DNA of 64,000 nucleotides from Dehalococcoidia bacterium (GTDB lineage: Bacteria > Chloroflexota > Dehalococcoidia > Bin125): assembly GCA_963663235.2 (NCBI GenBank), contig CAXXNO010000012.1, positions 407,333 through 471,332 of the forward strand, read 5' to 3'. A model generated the notes under the pieces. It saw only the letters and a list, made by a program, of their open reading frames with translations. It ran no database searches and had not been told where the DNA came from. Shown in pieces: positions 13,305 to 48,462 of this stretch (the stretch's first letter is position 1; every line of letters starts with the position of its first letter). The position numbers and the translations under genes were made by a program.

Positions 13305-15116
13305 ATGGCGCCCACGCAAGATCGCGACGCGACGACGGTCGATCCCATCACTATCGAGGTTCTGCGCAGCGCGTTCATCGCGATCTGCAACGAGATGGCC
13401 ATCACCGTGGCCAAGACGGCCTATTCCACACCGGTCAACGAAGGGCACGATTTCGCCACCGGCCTGTATGACCGTCACGGGATGCTGATCGCCCAAGGAG
13501 AATTCGACTTGCCGGCGTTCGTGGGGCTCACGCATCTCACCGTCCCGGAGATCATCCGCGCGATCGGGTTGGAGAACATGGCGCCCGGCGACGTTTACAT
13601 GATCAACGACCCCTACGTCGCCACGACCCACTGCAATGACATCCACTTCGTGCGGCCGATCTTCTCCGGCGACCAGCGGGTGGGGTTCGCCACCTCCACC
13701 GCGCACTGGTCGGACGTGGGCGGCGTGGCGCCCGGATCGCTGAACACCGCGGCCCGCTCCGCCTACGAGGAGGGGATCCGCATCCCGGGGATCACGCTCT
13801 ACAAGCGCGGAGTCATCAACCAGGACGTCGTTTCGCTGCTGCTTGTCAACATGCGGCAGTCTTGGGAACGTCTGGGTGACCTCAACGCGCAGGTCGCCGC
13901 GATCAAGTTGGGCGACCAGCGGCTGCAGGCGCTCATCGACAAGCACGGAATGGATGCCGTGCTGACGACCATGGAGGAGATCCAGAACCATTCCGAGCGG
14001 ATCGCGCGCGCCGCCTTCGCCAGCCTGCCCGACGGGAGCTACAGGGCGGAGGACCGCGTCGATCAAGATATGTACACCGGCGAGGTGAAGACGATTCGCC
14101 TCAATCTCACGATCAAAGGCGATCACGCGATCTTCGACCTCACTGAGAGCGACGGCCCCGCCGAATCCGCCATCAACGCGACCATCGCCGGCGTCACGTC
14201 GGGAATCTTCATCGCCATGGCCTCCATCCTGCCCCCGATGCCGATGAACGCCGGCGTCATGCGCGCCATCGAGATCAAGGCGCGGCGCGGCTCCATCGTC
14301 TGGGCGCAGCCGCCGATGCCGGTCTCCGTGATGACCATCACGAGCATGGATTGCGTCATAGGGTCCGCGACCCTGGCCCTGGGACAAGCGCTGCCCGAGC
14401 GCGCAGTAGGAGTAGCCGCCAGCATCCTCAACTCAACCTACGCCGGCGACGACCTGCGGCCGGCGTTCACCGCGCCGTTCATCAACTACACGTGGGCGTT
14501 CGGTGGCATGGGTGGCGCAAAGGACCACGATGGGCCCAACGCCATAGCGCCGCCGTTTGGTGCGAGCGGCAGCACAATCCCTGCCGAGCTGCAGGAGCGC
14601 CGGTACCCGGTCCTGTACCGCCGCTGCAATCTGCTCGCCGACTCAGGCGGGCCCGGAAAATCGCGGGGCGGCCTTGCCTTGAACACCATCATGGAGTTCC
14701 CGTTCTCCGACGTTGCGGCGGGCGGTCTCTCCACACTGGGGAACCGAGAGCGCTTCGGCCCCGCCGGGGCTTTCGGCGGCAGTCCCGGCAACCCGGCCCG
14801 TCTGGCGCTCAACGACGGGACCGAAAACGAGCAACATCTCGGCACAACCTCAACCAATGTCCCCGTCCAGCGAGGCGACCTGCTCACCTTCAGGACAAAC
14901 GGGGGAGGCGGCTACGGTGAACCGTTGGAGCGATCGCCGGAGCGTGTGCTGGAGGACATCAAGGACGACTACGAAACGCCCGCCGGGGCGCGCGAGCAGT
15001 ACGGCGTGGTGATCCGGACGATCGACAGGCGCACGCTACAGTACGAGGTCGACGAACGGGAAACGACGGAACTCCGGCAATCGATGCGGGCGAGCAAGAC
15101 GCAGCGCCCGGCGTAG
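13305..15116 (+). CDS. Hydantoinase B / 5-oxoprolinase family protein (copy 1)
   Basis: DPITIEV, EM...KTAYS, NDPY...HCND, HWSDVGG, EEGIRIP, DSGGPGKSRGG, GGGGYG. Confidence 0.92.
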   Translation: MAPTQDRDATTVDPITIEVLRSAFIAICNEMAITVAKTAYSTPVNEGHDFATGLYDRHGMLIAQGEFDLPAFVGLTHLTVPEIIRAIGLENMAPGDVYMINDPYVATTHCNDIHFVRPIFSGDQRVGFATSTAHWSDVGGVAPGSLNTAARSAYEEGIRIPGITLYKRGVINQDVVSLLLVNMRQSWERLGDLNAQVAAIKLGDQRLQALIDKHGMDAVLTTMEEIQNHSERIARAAFASLPDGSYRAEDRVDQDMYTGEVKTIRLNLTIKGDHAIFDLTESDGPAESAINATIAGVTSGIFIAMASILPPMPMNAGVMRAIEIKARRGSIVWAQPPMPVSVMTITSMDCVIGSATLALGQALPERAVGVAASILNSTYAGDDLRPAFTAPFINYTWAFGGMGGAKDHDGPNAIAPPFGASGSTIPAELQERRYPVLYRRCNLLADSGGPGKSRGGLALNTIMEFPFSDVAAGGLSTLGNRERFGPAGAFGGSPGNPARLALNDGTENEQHLGTTSTNVPVQRGDLLTFRTNGGGGYGEPLERSPERVLEDIKDDYETPAGAREQYGVVIRTIDRRTLQYEVDERETTELRQSMRASKTQRPA

Positions 15117-15133: not shown

Positions 15134-16927
15134 ATGGCAGCGAAACAGCCGCCGGCGGCGACGACGACACTCGATCCCATCACGTTCGAGGTGCTGCGCA
15201 GCGCCTTCGCAGCCATCTGCAACGAGATGGCCTTGGTGGTAGCGAAGACCGCCTACTCCACTCCCGTCAACGAGGGCCACGACATGGCTACGGGGCTCTA
15301 CGACCGCAACGGGAAACTGTTCACCCACGGCGAAGCGGACATGCCGGTGTTTGTCGGGCTGGGACTGCTGACGGTCCCCGAGGTGATCCGCGCTATCGGC
15401 CTGGAGAACATGGAGCCCGAGGACATCTACATCATCAACGACCCATACGTCGCCAGCACGCACAACAATGACATACATATCATGAAGCCGATCTTCCACG
15501 AGGGGCATTTGGTGGCGTTCGCCTCCTCCACGGCGCACTGGTCCGATGTCGGCGGCACCGCCCCCGGCTCACTCAACCCGCGGGCGCGCTCGCACTTCGA
15601 AGAGGGGGTGCGCATCCCGGCGCTCAAGCTCTTCAAGCGGGGCGTGCTGGACAGAGACATTGTGGCCATTCTGCTCGCCAACATGCGGCAGTCCTGGGAG
15701 CGTCTGGGTGATCTGCACGCGCAGGCCGCGGCGATCAAAGCCGGCGACAAGCGGATCCAGGGACTCATCGCCAAGTACGGGCTGGATGCCGTCCTTGCGG
15801 CCATGGACGAGATCCAGAACTACTCGGAGCGCCTCGCGCGCGCGTCCTTTGCACGGCTCCCCGATGGGACGTACGAGGTGGAAGAGAAGGTCGACCAGGA
15901 TGTGTGGACAGGCGAGCCTGTCACCGTTCGACTTAAACTGACGATCGACGGGGACCACGCCGTCTTCGACCTCACCGACAGCGACGGTGCGACCGAATCC
16001 GCGATCAACTGCACCATCGCCGGCACGACCTCCGGCGTCTACATCGGCATCGGCTCCATCCTGCCCCCGATGCCGATGAACGCCGGCGTCATGCGCGCGA
16101 TCGAGATCAAGGCCAAGCGGGGCTCCGTGGTATGGGCGCAGCCGCCCGTCGGGGTGTCGTGCATGGCCATCACCACGCTGGATATGGTGCTCGGCACGGG
16201 GATGCTGGCCTTGGGACAGGCGCTGCCCGAGCGTGCCGTCGGGCTGGCGAGCGCCATCCTGAACACCTGCTACGCCGGTCACGACAGCCGCCCGGAGTTC
16301 GACGCACCCTTCATCAACTACACCTGGGGCTTCGGCGGCATGGGAGGCGCGAAGACACACGACGGCTCGAACTACGTCTCGGCCCCGTATTCGGCGGTGG
16401 CCACGAATATCCCCTGTGAGTTGCAGGAGCGGCGGTATCCCGTTCTCTACCGGAGGGCGAACTACACCCAGGACTCCGGCGGGATCGGGGTCTGGCGCGG
16501 CGGGGTCGGTATGAACATCCAGATGGAGTTCCCCTACGGGGGCGGGACGCTGTCCAACATCGGCAACCGGGAGCGCTTCGGTCCCACCGGCATCTTCGGC
16601 GGCAGCCCCGGCGGCCGCGCGCGCCTAATCTTGGGCGAGGGGACCGAGAACGAGCAGGTTCTGGGGACGTTCGCCGTCAACCATCCCGTCAACAAAGGCG
16701 ATCGTCTGACGTTCGTCACCAATGGCGGGGGCGGGTACGGCAATCCAATGCAGCGGCCCGCGGCGCGGGTGCTGGAAGACGTCAAGGACGAGTACGTCTC
16801 CATCGCCCGAGCGCGGGAGGACTACGGCGTGGCGATCCGGGAGATCGACCGGCGCACCCTCCAGTACGAGGTGGATGAAGAAGCCACCGCGAAACTGCGC
16901 GCCTCAGCGGGGACCACTCAGCGCTAA
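15134..16927 (+). CDS. Hydantoinase B / 5-oxoprolinase family protein (copy 2)
   Basis: Same motifs (HNND, HWSDVGG, GGGGYG); close paralog of copy 1. Confidence 0.92.
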   Translation: MAAKQPPAATTTLDPITFEVLRSAFAAICNEMALVVAKTAYSTPVNEGHDMATGLYDRNGKLFTHGEADMPVFVGLGLLTVPEVIRAIGLENMEPEDIYIINDPYVASTHNNDIHIMKPIFHEGHLVAFASSTAHWSDVGGTAPGSLNPRARSHFEEGVRIPALKLFKRGVLDRDIVAILLANMRQSWERLGDLHAQAAAIKAGDKRIQGLIAKYGLDAVLAAMDEIQNYSERLARASFARLPDGTYEVEEKVDQDVWTGEPVTVRLKLTIDGDHAVFDLTDSDGATESAINCTIAGTTSGVYIGIGSILPPMPMNAGVMRAIEIKAKRGSVVWAQPPVGVSCMAITTLDMVLGTGMLALGQALPERAVGLASAILNTCYAGHDSRPEFDAPFINYTWGFGGMGGAKTHDGSNYVSAPYSAVATNIPCELQERRYPVLYRRANYTQDSGGIGVWRGGVGMNIQMEFPYGGGTLSNIGNRERFGPTGIFGGSPGGRARLILGEGTENEQVLGTFAVNHPVNKGDRLTFVTNGGGGYGNPMQRPAARVLEDVKDEYVSIARAREDYGVAIREIDRRTLQYEVDEEATAKLRASAGTTQR

Positions 16928-28875: not shown

Positions 28876-29176
28876 CTACGTGACGCCGACGATACGGCCG
28901 CCCGTCAGGATTCGCAAGTCAGAGGGGCGGAGACGAAAGACCGCGGGCGGCGTGCCGGCGGGCCGCCCAGATCTCGTCGTACCGGAGCAGATCCTCATCG
29001 ATGAGTACCTGCATGGGCTCGCGATGGCCGACCGGCGGCACCCCGCAGCCGAGGGCCGCCGCCGCTTCCGTCGCGGTGCGCGTGGTGGCGGGCAGCTCCC
29101 GCACCGACAGCGTCATGCCGCGGGCCGCGATCGCCTCTTGCACGCGGCGGGCGCTATTACTCAGCGGCTCAGCCAT
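28876..29176 (-). pseudogene. YbaK/EbsC aminoacyl-tRNA deacylase remnant
   Basis: TRTATEAAAALGC fused directly to GVPPVGH (central part missing), then IDEDLL..DEIWAA; frameshift at about 28961 before AGTP.AVF. Confidence 0.75.
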
Positions 29177-30086
29177 TGGCGCCCTCCTCCCCAGAGCCGC
29201 CGCGCCGCACCTCCACGCTGCCGAGCGACTCGAACACCCGCACCAATGCCTGTGTGCCCTCGTCGCCGGCGCCCTCCGCGTCAAGCGAGAGGAATAGCTG
29301 ATGCGCCAGAGCCGTTCCGGGCAACGGGAGCCCCAGTGCGTCCGCCGCAGCCAGGGCGAGACGCAGATCCTTCTGCTGGAGCTTGACCGTGAATCCCGGG
29401 GCGAAATCGCGGTCGAGTACACGCGGTGCGAGGTTGCTTAGCATCCACGAGCCCGCCGCCCCGGAACTCACGGCTTCCAGCATCTTCGCCGGGTCGACTC
29501 CGGACTTCTGTGCCAGCACCAAGCATTCACTCATCGCCAAGAGGTGAATCGCGCCGGCCACCTGATTGCACAGCTTGACGGACTGTCCCGCCCCGACCGG
29601 GCCGACGTGCACGATCGTCTTGCCCATCGCCTCAAGAATCGGGCGGCAGCGCTCCACCACGGCCGCCTCGCCGCCGACCATGATCGCTAGGGTGCCGGTT
29701 TTGGCGCCGCCTTCGCCGCCAGACACCGGCGCGTCCAGCACCGCCACGCCCCTCTCTGCGAGGCGATTCGCCAGGCGGCGCGTCACCGCAGGGCTGATGG
29801 TGCTCATGTCGATGAACACGTCTCCAGCCCCAAGTCCCTCGGCGGCGGGGTCCGGCCCAAACAGCACCTGCTCAACGTCCGGAGAGTCGGTCACCATCGT
29901 GATGAGCACATCGCTGGCTTCGGCGACGGCGCACGGCCCGGCGGCCGCAAGGGCCCCGGCGTCGACGGCTGCATCGACGCCCGGGCGGCTGCGGTTCCAG
30001 ACGGCTACCTGGTAGCCGGCGCGCAGCAAGTTCGCCGCCATCGGCCGACCCATGATGCCAAGGCCTATGAAGCCGATCCGCTCCAT
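29169..30086 (-). CDS. Beta-hydroxyacid dehydrogenase (2-hydroxy-3-oxopropionate reductase / MmsB family)
   Basis: GFIGLGIMG, DMSTISP, LDAPVSGG, KLCNQ, KDLRLA. Confidence 0.92.
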   Translation of the reverse strand: MERIGFIGLGIMGRPMAANLLRAGYQVAVWNRSRPGVDAAVDAGALAAAGPCAVAEASDVLITMVTDSPDVEQVLFGPDPAAEGLGAGDVFIDMSTISPAVTRRLANRLAERGVAVLDAPVSGGEGGAKTGTLAIMVGGEAAVVERCRPILEAMGKTIVHVGPVGAGQSVKLCNQVAGAIHLLAMSECLVLAQKSGVDPAKMLEAVSSGAAGSWMLSNLAPRVLDRDFAPGFTVKLQQKDLRLALAAADALGLPLPGTALAHQLFLSLDAEGAGDEGTQALVRVFESLGSVEVRRGGSGEEGANG

Positions 30087-32346: not shown

Positions 32347-33093
32347 TCAGCGCGTCCTCGCACCCTTGCGGCGCGGCGGTTCGACCCAGCACACGATCTG
32401 CGCCTCGCGAGCACCGCTGTCGGCGCGGACGGCGTGGCAGCGCCGACGCATGGGACAGCGAGTGCAGTCGGGGTTGCGGGCCGTGCAGATTTGCGCCCCG
32501 AAGTCCATCAACCCCTGATTGATGCTCCATCCGTCGCCGCGTGGCAGGATAGCGGCGGCCAGAGCCCACAGCCGCCGGCGACGCCGGGCGGCGGGCTCGC
32601 CGTCCGGCAACGCCCCAGCGAACCAGCGCTCCAGCACGCGCGCCACGTTCGTATCGAGGATTGGCGACGGCACGCCGTAGGCGAAGGTCATCACCGCCCC
32701 CGCCGTGTAGCGCCCCACACCTGGGAGTGCCATGAGTTCATCATTCGTGGCCGGCAGCTCTCCGGCGCGATACGCAACCGTCGAGTCGGCGATGCGTTTG
32801 ATCCATGTCCCCCGCACCTTGTAGCCAAGCGGGTCCGTGATCGCCTTGACGTCATGCAGCGGCGCCTCCGCAACGTGATGGATCGTGGGAAAGCGATCCA
32901 GGAACTCTTGGTAGACCTCCGTGACTCGCGGGACTTGCGTCTGGTGGAGCATGATCTCGGAGACGAGGATGCGGTATGGGTCGCGGGTATGTCGCCAGGG
33001 CAGATCGCGGCCGTGGGCACGAAACCAGCGCCGCAGATTGCCACGGTAGTAGCGCAGCCGGACCGGATCGATGCGTGCCTCCAACGGTCGCAC
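32347..33093 (-). CDS. mutY: A/G-specific adenine glycosylase, MutY-like, catalytic domain only
   Basis: RDLPWR..DPY.ILVSEIMLHQT, LPGVGRYTA HhH, DTNVARV, CTARNPDCTRCPMRRRC Fe-S motif; 248 aa. Confidence 0.8.
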   Translation of the reverse strand: MRPLEARIDPVRLRYYRGNLRRWFRAHGRDLPWRHTRDPYRILVSEIMLHQTQVPRVTEVYQEFLDRFPTIHHVAEAPLHDVKAITDPLGYKVRGTWIKRIADSTVAYRAGELPATNDELMALPGVGRYTAGAVMTFAYGVPSPILDTNVARVLERWFAGALPDGEPAARRRRRLWALAAAILPRGDGWSINQGLMDFGAQICTARNPDCTRCPMRRRCHAVRADSGAREAQIVCWVEPPRRKGARTR

Positions 33094-44275: not shown

Positions 44276-46898
44276 CTACCGTCTCTCTGTACCCACGGAC
44301 ACGACAACTTCGCCTCGGAAGAGGCCGTGCTCGGTCTTCTCCCAATAGAACGGCCGGAAGATCAGTTGGTATGCCGCCTTCCAGGCCGCCACGCTCATCA
44401 AGATCCAGTACAAGGGACTGATCAGGCCCCACTTCACCAGGCCGTAGTAGCGGCGCCGAAGGGCTCCGGCCATGGCGACATAGGCGAAGGCGAAATTACC
44501 GAAGTAGAGGGTCACGGCTCCCATGAAGAAGATGGGCGTGGGAAAGAGATCATTGATGAAGTCGGGTCGGAAGACCAGCCAGATCACCGTGATCGTCCAG
44601 AAGATCGGATTGGCCAGGAAGCCGAAAATCGTTCCCGCCATGATCATCTGGAACGAGAAGAAGCCGTACGTGCCGAGTTCGCGCCACAGCTTGATCGGCC
44701 GACGCATATGCACCAACCACGTCTGCATGTAGCCCTTCACCCAGCGGGAACGCTGGCGGATCCAGTTGCCCACGGCGGAGTTGGCTTCCTCGAAGGTCGT
44801 GGAGTCGATTACCGCGGTGTTCCAGCCGCGCTTGAAGATCCGCAGTCCCACGTCCGCGTCCTCCGTGACGTTGAAGGGGTCCCAGCCACCGACCTCGCGG
44901 AGCCGATCGGTCTTGAAGTGATTCGATGTGCCGCCGAGGGGAATCGGCGCGCCCGTTCCGTCCAGCCCCGGCATCAGCAGGTCAAACCACATGGAGTACT
45001 CGCTGGTGAACCAGCGCGTGAGGATATTCTGGTTGCGATTGAAGTAGTTCAGTTTGGCCTGCAGGCACACGTACTCATCCGGCAACTTCCGGAACGCCAC
45101 CACGGCCTTCCGTAGCTGGTCGATCTCGGGCACGTCTTCGGCGTCGTAGATGACCAGATACTCCCCGCGGGCGTGGAGCAGACCGTAGTTACAGGCCTTC
45201 GGCTTCCCTTTCGGATCGCCCTGCGGCACGATCAGCATCTCCATGTGCGGCGGAAGGCGGAGGCGGCGCACGGCCTCTACGGTCTCCGCGTCGTCCTCTT
45301 CCAGGATCACCTTGATGTCCAGTTTGCTCCGCGGATAATCGAGCGAGTTCAGCGCAGAGACGACCAGCGGCACGATCTGCGGTTCTCGATACATCGGGAC
45401 CAGCACGGTATAGATGGGGAGCGAGGCGTCTCCGAGTTCGGCGAGCTCTTCCTTGCTCGTTGGGACCTCGAACTCGTGTCCCAATGCTCGATAGATGAGG
45501 TAGAACTTGTACGACGAGAACGCCGTGTAGAAGGCAGCGGCGGCGCCGAACAACACCTGCAGCGTGATCTTCCAGTCCAGCAGCAGTCCCAGCACCACCA
45601 GCGCCCCGATACCCGCTGCCCAGAGCAACTGCCTCTTCGTGAATACGGTGGACGCCGAGTCTTCGGGGAAGCGGACCAGGAGCTCCGTGGCCGCCCGCTC
45701 CACGTACTCCGCCCGATAGATCCGCTCAAGGACCTGTTCAATCGCCTCCTCGGAAGCCCACACCGGCTGCACCGGCTGTCCGACCTCGCGCCGGATGGTC
45801 TCCAGCGCCGCGGTATTCAGTGGATCGGACATGGCCACCGTGATCCCGCTGTCGGTGACGAAGATCGGAATCGCCAGGTAACGACGCGCCGTGGCTTCGC
45901 TCAGGCGTCGCACGACCTGTTCCTCGGGTTCCATCTCGGCAAGGTCGAAGAAAGGGACCTCGTGCTGCTCGGCGAGAAAGGAAGCCAGTTGCTCGGCCGT
46001 GATGTAGCGCAGCTCGCGCAGCGCCTGCCCGAGGCGCACGCCAGTCGCGCGGCTCAGGCGCAAAGCATGCTGCAGTTCGGTGCGCGAGATGATTCCCGCC
46101 AAGCGCAGATGCTCTCCCAGCGAAAACTGTCCGTTGACGCGTTTGGTCGCAGCGCGCACTTCACCGCGCGGCGCAGCGACGACCGTGATCGGCGAGGACA
46201 GGGCCTCTTGCACTGCAGCCCTCGCCGCCTCGTCCGTGGGGTCGGCGAACGCGACGGTCAGCCGTCCATCCCGCTCCTCGTATGAGATGGCCACGTGTTG
46301 CTCGGCGATGGGCCGTGGCAGATGATAGGCAGCGGCCGGGTCCACCGGATCGACTGTGATGGTCTGGATGCTGCGCACGCCGACGGCGTCCACGACCTCC
46401 CGAGCCTCCTCGCGCAAATCGAGTGAGACGAGCGGGACGCCGGCCACCTGTGCCATTTCAGCCGCGACATCAGCCGGCATGAGCGTCGACGCGGCGAGCA
46501 CTGCCTCGTCGCCCGGAAGGCGCTCGTCCACCACTAGATGCCAAGCGCGGACGCGGTCCGCCGGCGAGAGTTTGCCCGCCTGAACGAGCCGGTCGGTCAG
46601 CAGATGCACTGAGGACGGCACCTCACCGCGGTCCACGCCGCGGGAGGCCGCCGCCATGGCGAATTCCCCGGGTGGCGCCACCGCCGCGAGCACTGGCCGC
46701 CCGATGCGATCGCTCAGCGCTCGCACGCGCTCCGGCGCGGGGTCCGTGAAGGCGATCGTGACAACGCCATCATCCCACCGCAGAGGGCAGGCCTGGAACT
46801 CCGCCACGTCAGCTTCGGAGAGGTGGCGGAGAACGGTGCGGTCGGGCAGCCAGCGCAGCGGCGACACATTCGGCAGCCCGTAGCTAATCGCCCGGGCT
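44276..46898 (-). CDS. Processive GT2 polysaccharide synthase with tandem N-terminal MshEN/T2SSE_N domains, 5' end cut by IS
   Basis: VLVPMYRE, KPKACN, YDAED, TED, QRSRW, WEKTEHG; MshEN motif SLGEHLRLAGII...RLGQALRELRYITAEQLASFLAEQ; three AFxDP/AMSDP repeats; ORF-track start lies inside the IS. Confidence 0.88.
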
Positions 46899-46965
46899 TG
46901 ACCTGCCCCCCCAGAACCGGTCCAGATCCTGTGCGAGGATTCGGGCCGGTGCGAAGGGAGTCGGC

Positions 46966-47244
46966 ATGGCACGCAAGCGGTACGCGGCCGAGGAGATCAT
47001 CGGCCACCTGCGGGAGGCGGAGGGGGTGCTCGCGCCGGGGGAATCGGTCGCGCCGGTCGCGCGCCGCCTCGGCGTGGCCGAGCCAACGTATTACCGCTGG
47101 CGGCGGGAGGACGGGGGGCTGCGGGTCGACCAGGCCAAGCGGCTGAAAGAACGGGAGCGCGAGAACAGTCGGCTGAAGCGGGTGGTGGCCGATCAGGCGC
47201 GGGACAACGCGATGGTGCGGGACGTCGCAGCGGGAAACTTCTGA
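46966..47244 (+). CDS. IS3 transposase OrfA (HTH)
   Basis: MARKRY..EEII..LRE...TYYRWR...ENSRLKRVVAD. Confidence 0.88.
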   Translation: MARKRYAAEEIIGHLREAEGVLAPGESVAPVARRLGVAEPTYYRWRREDGGLRVDQAKRLKERERENSRLKRVVADQARDNAMVRDVAAGNF

Positions 47245-48083
47245 GCCCGGCCAAGCGGCGCCGGGCGACATCCTACCGCACGGACCCGTACGCGGTGGCG
47301 GAGCGGCGGGCCTGCCCGGTCACCGGCCAGGCGCGGGCGACCCAGCGCGACGTGCCCCGGCCGTCCCCGGATGCGCCGGCGCTGATCGCGCGCAGCGTCG
47401 CGCTGGCCACCCGCTGCGGCCGCTACGGCTCCCGTCGCATCCCGGCCCGGCTGCGCCAGGCGGGCTGGCGGGTGAACCCCAAGCGGGTCGAGCGGCGCTG
47501 GCGTCAGGAAGGCTGGCGGGTCCCCGGGAAGCACCCCCAACGGGGCCGCCGCTGGCTCGCGGCCGGCTCGCGGGTGCGGCGGCGGGCCGAGCGGCCGTCC
47601 CACGTCTGGTCCGACGCCTTCGTCTTCGACCGCACCGCCGAGGGGCGCCCGGTGCGGATCCTCGCCATCGTGGATGAGGACCACCCGCGAGGGCCTGCGT
47701 CTCGACGTCGCCCGCCGACGGCGCCGCGACGTCGAGGCCTGGCGCGGTTGGCCCAGCTGTTCGTCGAGCGCGGGCCGCCGACGTTTCTGCGGTCCGCCAA
47801 CGGCCCGGCGTTCACCGCCACCGCGGTGCGGGACTGGCTGCACCGGGTCGGGGGCACGACCCGCTTCATCGAACCGGGCAGGCCTTGGGCGAACGGCTCT
47901 GGGGAATCGTTCAACGGCAAGCTGCGCGACGCGTGCCTCAATCGCGAGCGCTTCGACACCCTGCTGGAAGCCCAGATCCTCATCAAGGGCTGGCGGCGGG
48001 AGGACAACCCGATCCGCCCCCACCGTGCCCTCGGCTCCCGCCCCCCGCCCCGGAAACGCAGCAACCCCGGAAACGTCCCATGA
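47241..48083 (+). pseudogene. IS3 transposase OrfB, catalytically dead
   Basis: rve core recognisable (ESFNGKLRD, RPH) but DDE aspartate positions read Ala (WSDAF, RSANGPAF); local frame disruption at about 47680-47740. Confidence 0.85.
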
Positions 48084-48141
48084 CGCGCGTCCCGGCGATC
48101 GGACGAACTTAACGACTGGTACAACGATCGGGGGCAGGTCA

Positions 48142-48462
48142 CTTCAGTAGGTAGCTCTTGGCGCCGGCGCGCAGCGCCTCGAAGACGTAGCGGTCTTCGT
48201 CATAGTTCGAGAGGATGATCACCTCCGTGGCGGGGAACTCCGTACGAATACGACGGGTGGCCTCCACGCCGTCCATCCCACTCATGCGCACGTCCATGAG
48301 GACGACATTCGGGCGGAGGGCCTGTACTTTCTCGAGGGCCTGCTGGCCGTCCCCGGCCTCCCCCACGACTTCAAGATCAGGCGAGAGTGCGGTCATCTTG
48401 CGCAAGCCCTCGCGAATCACCGGGTGGTCGTCGACGATGAGGAGCGAGATGCGAGCCATCAT
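48142..48462 (-). pseudogene. NarL-type response regulator truncated by IS
   Basis: LIVDDHPVIREG, VLMDVRM, GAKSYLLK then a stop supplied by the IS end; last helix and HTH missing. Confidence 0.88.

Follow-up and report, generated by a model that had tools for sequence, protein, structure and literature searches.

Fungal repeat-induced point mutation (RIP) introduces C>T transitions in a dinucleotide context, lowers the GC content and strikes identical repeats first. In diversity-generating retroelements (DGRs), reverse transcription lets any base take the place of A within a short variable repeat, and only one strand is affected. Non-autonomous elements, whether MITEs or dead full-length copies, are mobilised in trans by the transposase of a relative. 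Elements of the IS3 family have a length of about 1.2-1.5 kb and terminal inverted repeats of the form 5'-TG...CA-3'.

The element described here lies in the window, which is the whole stretch of 64,000 nucleotides that was analysed, and its copies can be set beside each of these systems. As in RIP, one-directional point mutations are confined to repeated or mobile DNA, shift its composition and destroy its genes, but here C:G replaces A:T, a transversion by which the GC content goes up, identical active copies are untouched, and no enzyme or sexual cycle is visible. Adenine-directed mutagenesis is shared with DGRs, except that A is changed to C only, that T>G is just as frequent on that strand, and that the whole element is affected. 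The conserved ends, the lack of a working transposase and the apparent multiplication via the transposase of a relative are those of non-autonomous elements; unlike many of these, the copies are full-length and were inactivated by directional hypermutation and not by deletion.

The closest resemblance in spectrum is to the signature of MutT deficiency and oxidised dGTP which, in the available text of PMC12318082, includes incorporation of oxidised dGTP mediated by Pol IV. Both have near-exclusive A:T>C:G changes on both strands without a longer motif, a preference for G/C neighbours with avoidance of A/T, and Asp/Glu to Ala and Val to Gly replacements. The signature is genome-wide in the mutator strain of that source, as far as its accessible part describes, whereas in the present genome IS copies are enriched in it about 30-fold over other duplicated DNA. 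The neighbour rule given there is 5' G and/or 3' C, while here 3' G is at least equal to 3' C and 5' T is favoured. IS-specific low-fidelity synthesis also exists: the IS-excision enhancer IEE, a host-encoded PrimPol-helicase with error-prone polymerase activity, acts only on copy-out-paste-in IS families and only with the transposase, according to the accessible part of a preprint (bioRxiv 10.1101/2023.06.07.543989). IEE differs in promoting excision, and the same part describes no point-mutation signature.

The element was delimited by blastn against its own genome and by Pfam domains, and occupies 46899-48141 on the plus strand (1243 bp, 74.2% GC). Its left terminal inverted repeat, TGACCTGCCCCC (46899-46910, plus strand, 12 nt), is complementary at 12/12 positions to the right terminal inverted repeat, GGGGGCAGGTCA (48130-48141, plus strand, 12 nt, 100%). 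The orfA gene (46966-47244, plus strand, 92 codons) encodes the helix-turn-helix N-terminal part of a transposase (HTH_Tnp_1, E 8.5e-18, 64.8 bits), and the orfB region matches rve_3 (9.4e-20) and also HTH_21 and rve in Pfam. The heptamer G GGA AAC (47232-47238, plus strand) lies just 5' of the orfA stop, at the point from which orfB is open in the -1 frame, and is identical in 25/26 aligned sequences covering these positions. In form it corresponds to programmed -1 frameshift sites, which makes it a putative slippery site. Length, TG...CA ends and orfA with a -1-frame orfB and heptamer were found as in the IS3 family, whereas the catalytic triad is incomplete and target-site duplications are missing. 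The element is a member of the IS3 family by descent, and it is inactive.

The stop codon of a truncated response-regulator gene on the minus strand is formed by the final three bases of the right inverted repeat. The receiver domain of this gene (48139-48462, minus strand, 107 codons, Response_reg E 2.5e-28) is cut off by the IS insertion and has no visible A:T>C:G hits; its small length and probably recent origin make it unsuitable as a neutral control.

The alignment confirms that both catalytic Asp codons of the DDE triad are lost, with GCC instead of GAC at 47617-47619 and again at 47796-47798 (plus strand), while the catalytic Glu codon GAA is kept at 47904-47906 (plus strand). Neighbouring codons are also changed: 47614-47616 is GAC in the window copy and TAC (Tyr) in relatives, 47808-47810 is GCG replacing GAG (Glu), and around the catalytic Glu there are GAG>GCG (47889-47891), TAT>TCT (47898-47900) and GTG>GGG (47901-47903). 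The original prediction had compared the element with IS3/IS407 consensus residues, and actual sequences agree with these. The low-GC copies, the copies in G003, copy G005a and all outgroups carry TAC GAC (WSYDF), GAC AAC..GAG TTC (SDNGPEF), GAG AAC (PWEN) and GAC GAG (RDEC), where the window copy has GAC GCC, GCC AAC..GCG TTC, GCG AAC and GAC GCG. Here G000 is the genome holding the window and G003 and G005 are genomes of two other genera. The replacements YGYRRIT>YGSRRIP, VNHKR>VNPKR, EYN>EDN and EYGG>EDGG are likewise present against the low-GC copy, but of three proposed Q>P replacements in OrfA only one is.

That no stop codons had arisen is true of the 262-codon ORF but not of orfB as a whole, the frame of which is broken at about 47679-47682 and restored at about 47734-47737. 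The break consists of T>G plus a one-base insertion that shifts the orfB frame in the alignment, GAGTA-CAC > GAGGACCAC (47679-47682, plus strand). The insertion is present in 11/12 high-GC copies, both low-GC copies and G003a, b, d and e, and missing in high-GC copy C10_3697, G003c, G005a, G005b, G003f and the outgroups; short-read contigs without one base at 47681 also occur. The restoring two-base insertion (47734-47737, plus strand) is private to the window copy and, judged from the gap columns of the alignment, brings the ORF back into frame 19 codons downstream. Read contigs that leave out two bases at 47734/47736 occur in all four runs, and most read contigs are without the insertion. 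This insertion may be an assembly error because the G000 assembly has indel errors: rpoB and rpoC are frameshifted in that assembly only, and rpoB of G003 is in one frame.

Substitutions were polarised with ancestral states taken from a plain tree and from agreement of sister and outgroup sequences. Compared with the state shared by its nearest relatives, copies G003a and G003b, the window copy is changed at 54 of 1228 sites, and 46 of these changes are A:T>C:G, which bears out the proposed one-directional excess in an IS3 element. The remainder comprises 1 A:T>T:A, 2 G:C>A:T and 5 C:G>A:T changes, with 0 A:T>G:C and 0 C:G<>G:C. On the G000 stem, since the split from the G003 copies, 36/37 fixed changes are A:T>C:G; the reverse class C:G>A:T accounts for 1/37 and there are no transitions. 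Six ordinary lineages pooled have 34/476 A:T>C:G (Fisher p=1e-34 against the stem), and in 6/6 of these A:T>G:C is at least as frequent as A:T>C:G, for example 11 vs 2 and 32 vs 10. Polymorphisms among the G000 copies are of the same kind (45/61 A:T>C:G). Spectrum and direction show an almost pure A:T>C:G hypermutation of the lineage, before and during its spread.

The word saturated was, however, too strong for this element, in which 46/351 A/T sites (13%) are hit in the window copy. At least one G000 copy is hit at 67/333 ancestral A/T sites (20%), as A>C at 35 and T>G at 32, and 67/71 changes at the 333 sites are A>C or T>G against 3/71 A:T>G:C. The hits are equal on both strands (A 51/179, T 51/154), and the proposed MutT-deficiency (8-oxo-dGTP) spectrum agrees with the published one in the accessible part of PMC12318082. 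They are spread over about 1.1 kb of the element without spatial clustering, either overall (p=0.95) or among hits with a common copy pattern (p=0.3-0.4), and in the first 100 alignment columns 0/28 A/T sites are hit in any G000 copy. A 3' G or C and a 5' T are favoured and a 3' T is avoided. The suggested check of sequence context gave no recognition or methylation motif at -6 to +6 beyond these nearest neighbours. T>G mutations are reportedly seen after G-runs, but such a mechanism was rejected here, since C is not enriched at positions +1 to +3 of the hits when these are read in A-orientation.

The claim that nearly all deviations are A>C or T>G needs qualification where the low-GC copy is the reference: of the raw differences to it, about half are C<>G and transitions at third codon positions, an ordinary synonymous-type divergence much of which falls on the low-GC branch. 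These ordinary third-position differences would suit an IS subfamily that diverged normally in a higher-GC donor and was then imported, and the IS is horizontally mobile: copies in G000 and G003 are 95% identical, rpoBC of the same genomes about 75%. The indel errors of the G000 assembly could likewise suggest a sequencing or assembly artefact. Import and artefact are both very improbable. Among differences from the low-GC copy, 35/44 at second and 17/37 at first codon positions are A>C or T>G, and catalytic and conserved residues are destroyed, which is not functional divergence. The hits are polymorphic among copies within G000 and within G003, and the better-assembled G003, with rpoB in one frame, carries the signature too. 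Short reads support the sequence as well, since read contigs from two studies span both element junctions with 0 differences and have both alleles inside the element, with C and A at 47617 and two alleles also at 47899 and 47902. The summed contig depth of 300-2800 over the IS against about 10 in the flanks is not readable as copy number.

A blastn search of G000 against itself identified 12 full-length high-GC copies with 74-75% GC and 5 fragments at contig ends, in a genome of 68% GC. The GC content of the family has risen to this level from about 69-71%. The genome also contains two sister copies of low GC, which keep the canonical codons. The 12 high-GC copies have precise ends and unrelated flanks, and both catalytic Asp codons are lost (GCC) in 12/12, leaving Glu alone of the triad. 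This shows spread after catalytic death, and the element must have spread with transposase made elsewhere. A relative on contig C14 with an open 403-codon orfB frame is a possible source of it. Target-site duplications of 3-5 bp are found at 0/12 high-GC copies and 0/4 identical G003 copies; a duplication (gactc) occurs only at the two low-GC copies, both within one duplicated segment. Standard transposition itself is therefore something that we infer.

Exchange between the copies is plausible because the copies are mosaic and incompatible with a tree: 44 sites have 33 patterns, whereas 12 copies allow no more than 21 splits. Together with the rise in GC this could suggest GC-biased gene conversion, in which G/C alleles are favoured at mismatches. 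Such a bias cannot prefer transversions over transitions, and the near absence of A:T>G:C (0/37 on the stem, 3/71 at A/T sites) already speaks against it. Copy G005b and single IS6 copies are also hit, with no closer partner copies seen. Gene conversion as the cause is scarcely credible.

When the remaining duplicated DNA of the genome is taken for comparison, the hits are restricted to IS copies. Pairs of IS copies have 4.87% A:T<>C:G differences per A/T site and non-IS duplicated DNA 0.16%. The two sets are clock-matched by differences of other types (0.23% per site in IS pairs, 0.17% in non-IS duplications), so at matched background divergence the IS value is about 30 times higher. Dividing A:T<>C:G per A/T site by the per-site value for all other differences gives 21.3 for pairs of IS copies and 0.95, 0.63 and 0.51 for three identity classes of non-IS duplications, the youngest being highest. 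Among variable sites the share of A:T<>C:G is 45/61 in the IS and 21/88 in the youngest non-IS duplications (Fisher p=1.9e-9). These control duplications are largely coding and so not strictly neutral, and several touch contig ends and might be strain variants or assembly redundancy and not paralogs. In rpoB and rpoC there is no directional flood, with 34 A:T>C:G against 25 C:G>A:T among 324 G000-specific changes. The clock-matched excess and the rpoB/rpoC spectrum support restriction to mobile-element copies, and disfavour a uniform genome-wide bias acting on all neutral DNA, which the original prediction had offered as one of two readings.

Several other controls were set aside. The non-mobile pseudogenes, a YbaK-like fragment (28919-29422) and the response regulator, are too short and have no close intact references, and pseudogene finding by frameshifts is unsafe given the indel errors of the assembly. 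Two repeat families of about 1.75 kb with mild asymmetry are uninformative because they are intact hydantoinase-B paralogs. A scan for GC outliers as further hypermutated regions was also uninformative because about 200 ordinary regions reach at least 73.5% GC.

A chronic or episodic host-wide mutator of the MutT-deficient type might give the same picture if selection purges functional DNA and only dead IS copies keep the hits. In its favour is the spectrum, which is that of strains without mutT in the accessible part of PMC12318082. The search for mutT gave no MutT equivalog above cut-off in 5/5 genomes, the best Nudix match in G000 scoring 34.6 bits against a cut-off of 97.9, but only 3/14 control genomes pass the same cut-off. 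The signature is seen only in dead lineages while intact IS spectra are ordinary, and dead single IS6 copies, which need not have moved, are hit as well. The youngest non-IS duplications are slightly raised (21/88, ratio 0.95 against 0.5-0.6 in older ones), and G000-specific changes in rpoBC lean slightly towards A:T>C:G (34 vs 25). On the other hand, the clock-matched excess in IS copies is about 30-fold. As a rough estimate, if about 2,000-2,600 of 13,065 control A/T sites were neutral, at least about 100 A:T<>C:G differences would be expected at the rate of the IS, where 21 are seen. Older duplications (93-99.4% identity) are at a baseline of 0.51-0.63 and keep no footprint of a past episode, and separate episodes would have to be assumed for each of G000, G003 and G005 and for the organism behind run X1. 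With 36 changes against 1, the stem is far from the equilibrium of base composition, and such a process cannot have run genome-wide for long. A host-wide mutator is unlikely, though it is a serious contender.

Three genera and two IS families bear the signature, which occurs independently in G003 and G005. For example, 49/128 of the changes particular to G005b are A:T>C:G, copies G003a and G003b differ by 12 A:T<>C:G and 1 other difference, and in the contigs of a third study (run X1) 59/69 differing places are A:T<>C:G. A composite in G003 has 3 differences, all A:T<>C:G, all in its dead part and clustered. Two dead IS6 copies, single and with no sign of movement after death, have a weaker signature (16-25 A:T>C:G vs 5-12 reverse). 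Copies of the same IS clade in unrelated genomes are without it, their 82 differences including 51 transitions and 16 A:T<>C:G; the signature is thus specific to the host and not to the IS clade. Intact IS lineages have ordinary spectra: the 75% group of G003 has four identical copies with 0 substitutions, and the main IS6 copies (n=6) have 4 variable sites. The frameshifted low-GC copies in G000, which may be recent arrivals, have 2/80 A:T>C:G hits among their own changes. IS6 copies of G003 and G005 (74-83% identity) were too diverged for a clean spectrum.

The second reading of the original prediction was a dedicated defence that recognises and mutates repeated or mobile DNA, a bacterial analogue of RIP using A:T>C:G. 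Its part concerning targets agrees with the data, in that the hits are restricted to IS copies, include a second and unrelated family (IS6), and occur in one host family only, the same IS clade being unaffected elsewhere. The destruction of catalytic residues also fits, and independent lineages are recurrently hit at the same sites (24 observed vs 11.9 expected, p=4e-5). The machinery is what fails to appear: apart from the nearest-neighbour preference no recognition motif is present, no candidate gene was found, and to our knowledge no enzyme converts A:T to C:G directly. Repeat sensing should strike identical multi-copy active elements first, but these (four in G003, six of IS6) are untouched and intact lineages are ordinary. 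The hit element reached at least 12 copies and was therefore not silenced. A precedent was sought in the literature and none was found, which is an absence of precedent and not an impossibility. A dedicated defence is quite improbable. A broader formulation, in which a process of the host family, whether defence or by-product of transposition intermediates, marks IS copies for in-place A:T>C:G hypermutation that kills transposases and spares the chromosome, is doubtful but possible.

One type of change in dead IS copies, absent from other duplicated DNA, suggests that in this host group a mutagenic process affects copies of mobile elements and nothing else. The explanation favoured, tentatively and with a chance somewhat short of even, is that IS copies undergo additional DNA synthesis of low fidelity, tied to the IS and using oxidised dGTP. 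Insertion of oxidised dGTP (8-oxo-dGTP) opposite template A would give A:T>C:G, and this spectrum would be a mark of DNA synthesis and not of damage to a resting template. C:G>A:T, the class expected from template 8-oxoG, is nearly absent (1/37). In a host lineage in which no canonical MutT is seen, the IS copies would receive extra rounds of low-fidelity synthesis and the rest of the chromosome would not. The likeliest sources would be re-synthesis of donor or product strands in copy-out or replicative transposition attempts, and repair synthesis during exchanges between the many copies. The synthesis would be performed by a polymerase that discriminates poorly against oxidised dGTP. DinB-like and ImuB-like genes are encoded, and a DnaE2-like gene adjoins an IS copy, while a PrimPol/IEE-type enzyme (AEP domain) was not found in G000, G003 or G005. 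The window element is a catalytically dead, non-autonomous element with working ends, brought to at least 12 copies by transposase made elsewhere, and the ends may be clean because copies with hit ends drop out. Asp/Glu to Ala and Val to Gly outcomes resemble data on mutT and Pol IV with oxidised dGTP in the accessible part of PMC12318082. The agent, its link to IS-specific synthesis and the polymerase are what we infer. The simplest form of this explanation, with mutagenesis at each transposition, is hard to reconcile with the unmutated, active-looking families (4 G003 copies and 6 IS6 copies). Dead single IS6 copies without sign of movement after death and low-GC copies that are nearly unhit count against IS-linked synthesis.

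Bacterial mutation is generally AT-biased, and the element is a rare documented case of strongly GC-ward bacterial mutation. A literature search, supplements aside, turned up no earlier account of bacterial A:T>C:G hypermutation limited to IS copies. If a process marking IS copies in place is true, it would be the first point-mutation system in prokaryotes restricted to repeats or mobile elements, and its effect would be to increase GC locally. Should the hits indeed be restricted to IS copies, there is a local mutation regime, tied to mobile DNA, hundreds of times more biased than the background, and a new route of transposon inactivation that also creates non-autonomous full-length elements. 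The copies would be a natural read-out of the incorporation of oxidised nucleotides and a handle on which polymerase copies IS elements in copy-out or replicative transposition. Even a host-wide mutator seen only in dead DNA would still bear on the upkeep of high-GC genomes.

The IS3-family element at 46899-48141 in the window is 1243 bp long, with perfect 12-nt terminal inverted repeats, an orfA at 46966-47244 matching HTH_Tnp_1 (E 8.5e-18) and an orfB region with matches to rve_3, HTH_21 and rve in a Pfam-type domain search. The heptamer G GGA AAC stands just ahead of the orfA stop, and the orfB frame is open at -1. The GC content is 74.2%, compared with 68% for the source genome (G000), which comprises 2.75 Mb in 14 contigs. 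The element interrupts a response-regulator gene, whose stop codon comes from the IS end. At the junctions, 46899 and 48141, the flanks are unrelated genes, the truncated response regulator and the N-terminal end of a glycosyltransferase-type ORF of 898 codons, which suggests IS-mediated rearrangement or deletion after insertion.

Blastn against G000 gives 12 full-length copies including the window copy (the high-GC class), mutually 97-99% alike and with 73.7-74.9% GC, five further fragments at contig ends, two sister copies of 69% GC with 84-85% identity to the window element (the low-GC pair), and a relative on contig C14 with 74% identity. Target-site duplications were absent from all 12 high-GC copies and from four identical copies (L020, L021, L022 and L016) in G003, a genome of another genus in the same family; only the low-GC pair has one (gactc). 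Either the clade makes none or inter-copy recombination has reshuffled the flanks.

The original prediction measured the element against an IS3/IS407 consensus (WSYDF, SDNGPEF, PWEN, RDEC, YGYRRIT, VNHKR, EYN and EYGG), and exactly these codons are present in the low-GC copies, with the deviants in the high-GC copies. From the low-GC to the high-GC consensus there are 179 substitutions: 59 A:T>C:G, 4 C:G>A:T, 53 C:G<>G:C, 33 A:T>G:C, 26 G:C>A:T and 4 A:T<>T:A. The 81 third-position differences are of ordinary type, with 38 C<>G, 37 transitions and just 5 that are A>C or T>G. At second positions A>C or T>G account for 35 of the 44 differences, and at first positions for 17 of the 37. This split by codon position points to a coding-blind directional transversion process on top of ordinary synonymous-type divergence.

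A search of 41 genomes found close copies in two further genera of the host family (genomes G003 and G005). The G003 copies, with 71% GC, share 95.3% identity with the high-GC class and 88.5% with the low-GC class, and are intermediates between them. A plain maximum-likelihood tree is a ladder of outgroups, a G003 group of 75% identity, G003f, G005b, G005a and then the low-GC pair, which lies beside a clade made up of G003 copies and a cluster of G003c with the 12 G000 copies. When a change was credited to a lineage only where its sister and an outgroup concur, 36 of the 37 changes on the G000 high-GC stem since the split from G003a/b were A:T>C:G (21 T>G and 15 A>C; the remaining one C>A, no transitions), compared with 2 of 4 in G003a/b over the same interval. 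The proportion is 2/80 in the low-GC pair, 11/73 in G005a, 3/14 in G003f, 10/185 in the G003 75% group, 5/54 in the C14 relative and 3/70 in G010o. The one-directional excess that had been proposed is thus borne out (Fisher p=1e-34 against six ordinary lineages pooled), and G005b, in a different genome, has independently gained 49 such changes among 128. Compared at 1228 sites with the state common to G003a and G003b, the window copy has 54 differences, 46 of them A:T>C:G and none A:T>G:C. GC-biased gene conversion fails to explain the pattern, given the lack of A:T>G:C changes.

With the low-GC copies used for polarisation, 45 of the 61 polymorphisms within the G000 set of 12 are A:T>C:G changes (hits), and at 24 of these 45 sites a minority of copies still keeps the original A or T; the process went on while the element spread. 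Of the 23 changes fixed in 12/12 copies, 12 are T>G, 9 are A>C and 2 are of other types; both of the catalytic Asp codons that had been reported lost are among them. With both codons lost in every copy, the element must have multiplied after the death of its transposase, using one supplied in trans. The C14 relative is a candidate source because its ends are nearly identical to those of the high-GC copies and its orfB frame is open for 403 codons.

One Tyr codon was struck in two ways, TAC>GAC in some sub-lineages and TAC>TCC in others. The 44 polymorphic hit sites show 33 copy patterns, more than the maximum of 21 splits for a tree of 12 copies, which indicates recurrent hits at favoured sites, exchange of segments between copies, or both. 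G005b and the G000 copies have 24 hit sites in common compared with 11.9 expected (p=4e-5). A T>G with a one-base insertion that frameshifts orfB (alignment columns 798-800, window ~47679-47682) is common to the low-GC pair, G003a/b/d/e and 11 of the 12 G000 copies, and absent from the G000 copy C10_3697 and from G003c despite high-GC-type neighbouring sites; this distribution is compatible with no simple tree.

At 333 ancestral A/T sites in the G000 copies there are 35 A>C, 32 T>G, 2 T>C, 1 A>G and 1 A>T. The strands are hit equally (A 51/179, T 51/154), and hits show no spatial clustering along the element. None of the 28 A/T sites within the first 100 alignment columns is hit. When every hit is oriented to read as A, the preferred 3' neighbours are G (43% of sites hit) and C (30%), T (9%) is avoided there, and a 5' T is favoured (61%). 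Beyond these nearest neighbours no position from -6 to +6 clearly stands out, so that a recognition motif, for example of the adenine-methylation kind suggested for checking, was not found. A dedicated defence analogous to fungal RIP, the other possibility raised in the original prediction, is improbable, no gene, motif or literature precedent having been found for it.

Public-run contigs from two studies cross both junctions, from unique flanks of 10-14 kb into the IS, and show 0 differences there, so the junctions withstand the short-read check. Inside the element these contigs carry alternatives to the window copy at 48-53 places, of which G>T makes up 20-22 and C>A 11-13; both alleles are thus present in short-read data. 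In runs X19, X20 and X24, summed contig depth over 46862-48170 is 100-2800 in the IS and ~4-20 in the flanks, values not readable as copy number. At sites fixed in 12/12 assembled copies, for example 47617, the un-hit letter carries most depth, suggesting that, beyond the assembled copies, the samples contain a large number of less mutated ones, from the same or other organisms. In G000, rpoB and rpoC (G000:C4:535112-543056) are each split over several frames (rpoB open frames of 922, 199, 473 and 123 aa), whereas four relatives have single frames. This indicates indel errors in the assembly, so that frameshifts private to single G000 copies are weightless and substitutions keep their weight. 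The codon-position data, the within-genome polymorphism and the read support all contradict a reading as ordinary divergence or artefact.

As a control, other duplicated G000 DNA (1 kb or longer, 90% identity or higher, IS masked) was compared, the clock being the per-site frequency of every difference other than A:T<>C:G. A:T<>C:G makes up 187 of 1062 control differences, and 21 of 88 in the youngest class (at least 99.4%). The 66 IS copy pairs have 0.23% other differences per site and 4.87% A:T<>C:G per A/T site (ratio 21.3), compared with 0.17% and 0.16% (0.95) for non-IS duplications of at least 99.4%, 1.76% and 1.11% (0.63) for 97-99.4%, and 4.11% and 2.11% (0.51) for 93-97%. At matched background divergence the excess in IS copies is ~30-fold over control DNA that is mostly coding and not strictly neutral, several pairs reaching contig ends. 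G000-specific changes in rpoB and rpoC comprise 34 A:T>C:G and 25 C:G>A:T of 324. A host-wide mutator state, visible in dead DNA only, is the less probable reading, though it deserves some weight. Elsewhere in the window, a short minus-strand ORF at 28919-29422, by eye like a YbaK/aminoacyl-tRNA editing domain with a garbled middle, may be a non-mobile pseudogene. Two tandem hydantoinase-B/oxoprolinase genes (13305-15116 and 15134-16927) have ~32 further loci in the genome, forming two sets of 17 members each with 65-77% identity, an expansion very large for 2.75 Mb.

The same transposase clade is widespread, with 63-78% amino-acid identity across many phyla. Copy pairs from seven multi-copy unrelated genomes, non-independent within a genome, and one pair from two Acidobacteriota assemblies show 51 transitions, 16 A:T<>C:G, 11 C:G<>G:C and 4 A:T<>T:A. 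Inside the host family the A:T>C:G signature recurs. G003a and G003b differ by 12 A:T<>C:G and 1 other difference, and when contigs from a third study (X1) are compared with the window copy, 59 of the 69 mismatched places are A:T<>C:G, running in both directions. G003 also has two copies of a 2,061-bp composite; the 3 differences between them are all A:T<>C:G and fall in its dead 827-bp part, with 0 in the intact 1,241-bp IS part. In this composite (L016/L017) an intact 75%-group IS sits inside a truncated high-GC-type copy, and its two sites have unrelated flanks, as if it had moved as a unit. G005a and G005b lie head to tail, 4 bp apart (L019, G005:C1:578532-581016).

A second affected family is IS6 (DDE_Tnp_IS240), whose dead copies at G000:C12:39900-40612 and G000:C11:33150-33990 have 16-25 A:T>C:G and 5-12 reverse changes and ~70-71% GC compared with 66%; other members have 0-10 and 3-25. 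The intact form is 955 bp with a 272-aa DDE_Tnp_IS240 transposase, in 6-7 near-identical copies in G000. Among the genomes searched, both of these IS families turned up only in G000, G003 and G005. As rpoBC is only ~75% identical between these genera, the elements must be exchanged horizontally.

A:T>C:G is the sole class raised by mutT loss in Pseudomonas aeruginosa (617-fold), and Pol IV inserting oxidised guanine prefers G/C-flanked sites, avoids A/T-flanked ones and turns Glu/Asp codons into Ala/Gly (PMC12318082). The proposed mutT-deficiency type of spectrum holds, since oxidised dGTP placed opposite template A yields A:T>C:G and hardly any C:G>A:T. The signature would therefore be a record of DNA synthesis, and its concentration in IS copies suggests that synthesis there is additional or less discriminating. 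Host synthesis across the element is needed for copy-out-paste-in (IS3) as well as for replicative cointegrate formation (IS6).

No MutT equivalog scored above cut-off in G000, a weak sign given that only 3 of 14 control genomes pass the same cut-off. Genes for a DinB-type polymerase and for Fpg are present in the genome, and a MutY-like glycosylase of ~256 aa (window 32419-33045, minus strand) matches model positions 3-212 of 277 with 205.7 bits against a cut-off of 286.5, without the C-terminal third. A 9.3-kb segment occurring twice with 99.6% identity (G000:C12:54203-63477 and G000:C9:139299-148579) carries genes for a tyrosine recombinase, for an ImuB-like Y-family protein (IMS + IMS_C) and for a DnaE2-type Pol III alpha of 1085 aa, an error-prone polymerase cassette on an apparent mobile island. 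Its C12 copy directly adjoins the IS copy at C12:52953-54202. IEE, an error-prone PrimPol-helicase, is described as a host polymerase acting only on such elements (bioRxiv 10.1101/2023.06.07.543989); a domain search found no IEE-type PrimPol domain in G000, G003 or G005.

In the literature covered, main texts largely from outside subscription journals, no description of A:T>C:G hypermutation restricted to IS copies turned up for bacteria. The favoured explanation is IS-linked low-fidelity DNA synthesis, which would draw on an oxidised dGTP pool. Transposition as such leaves no hits, as is seen from four identical copies in the active G003 group and from six IS6 copies that are nearly identical, and this disfavours the simplest form, with each transposition mutagenic. 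Repeated, abortive or recombination-linked synthesis would be required, or else synthesis that over time affects resident copies whose ends still work.
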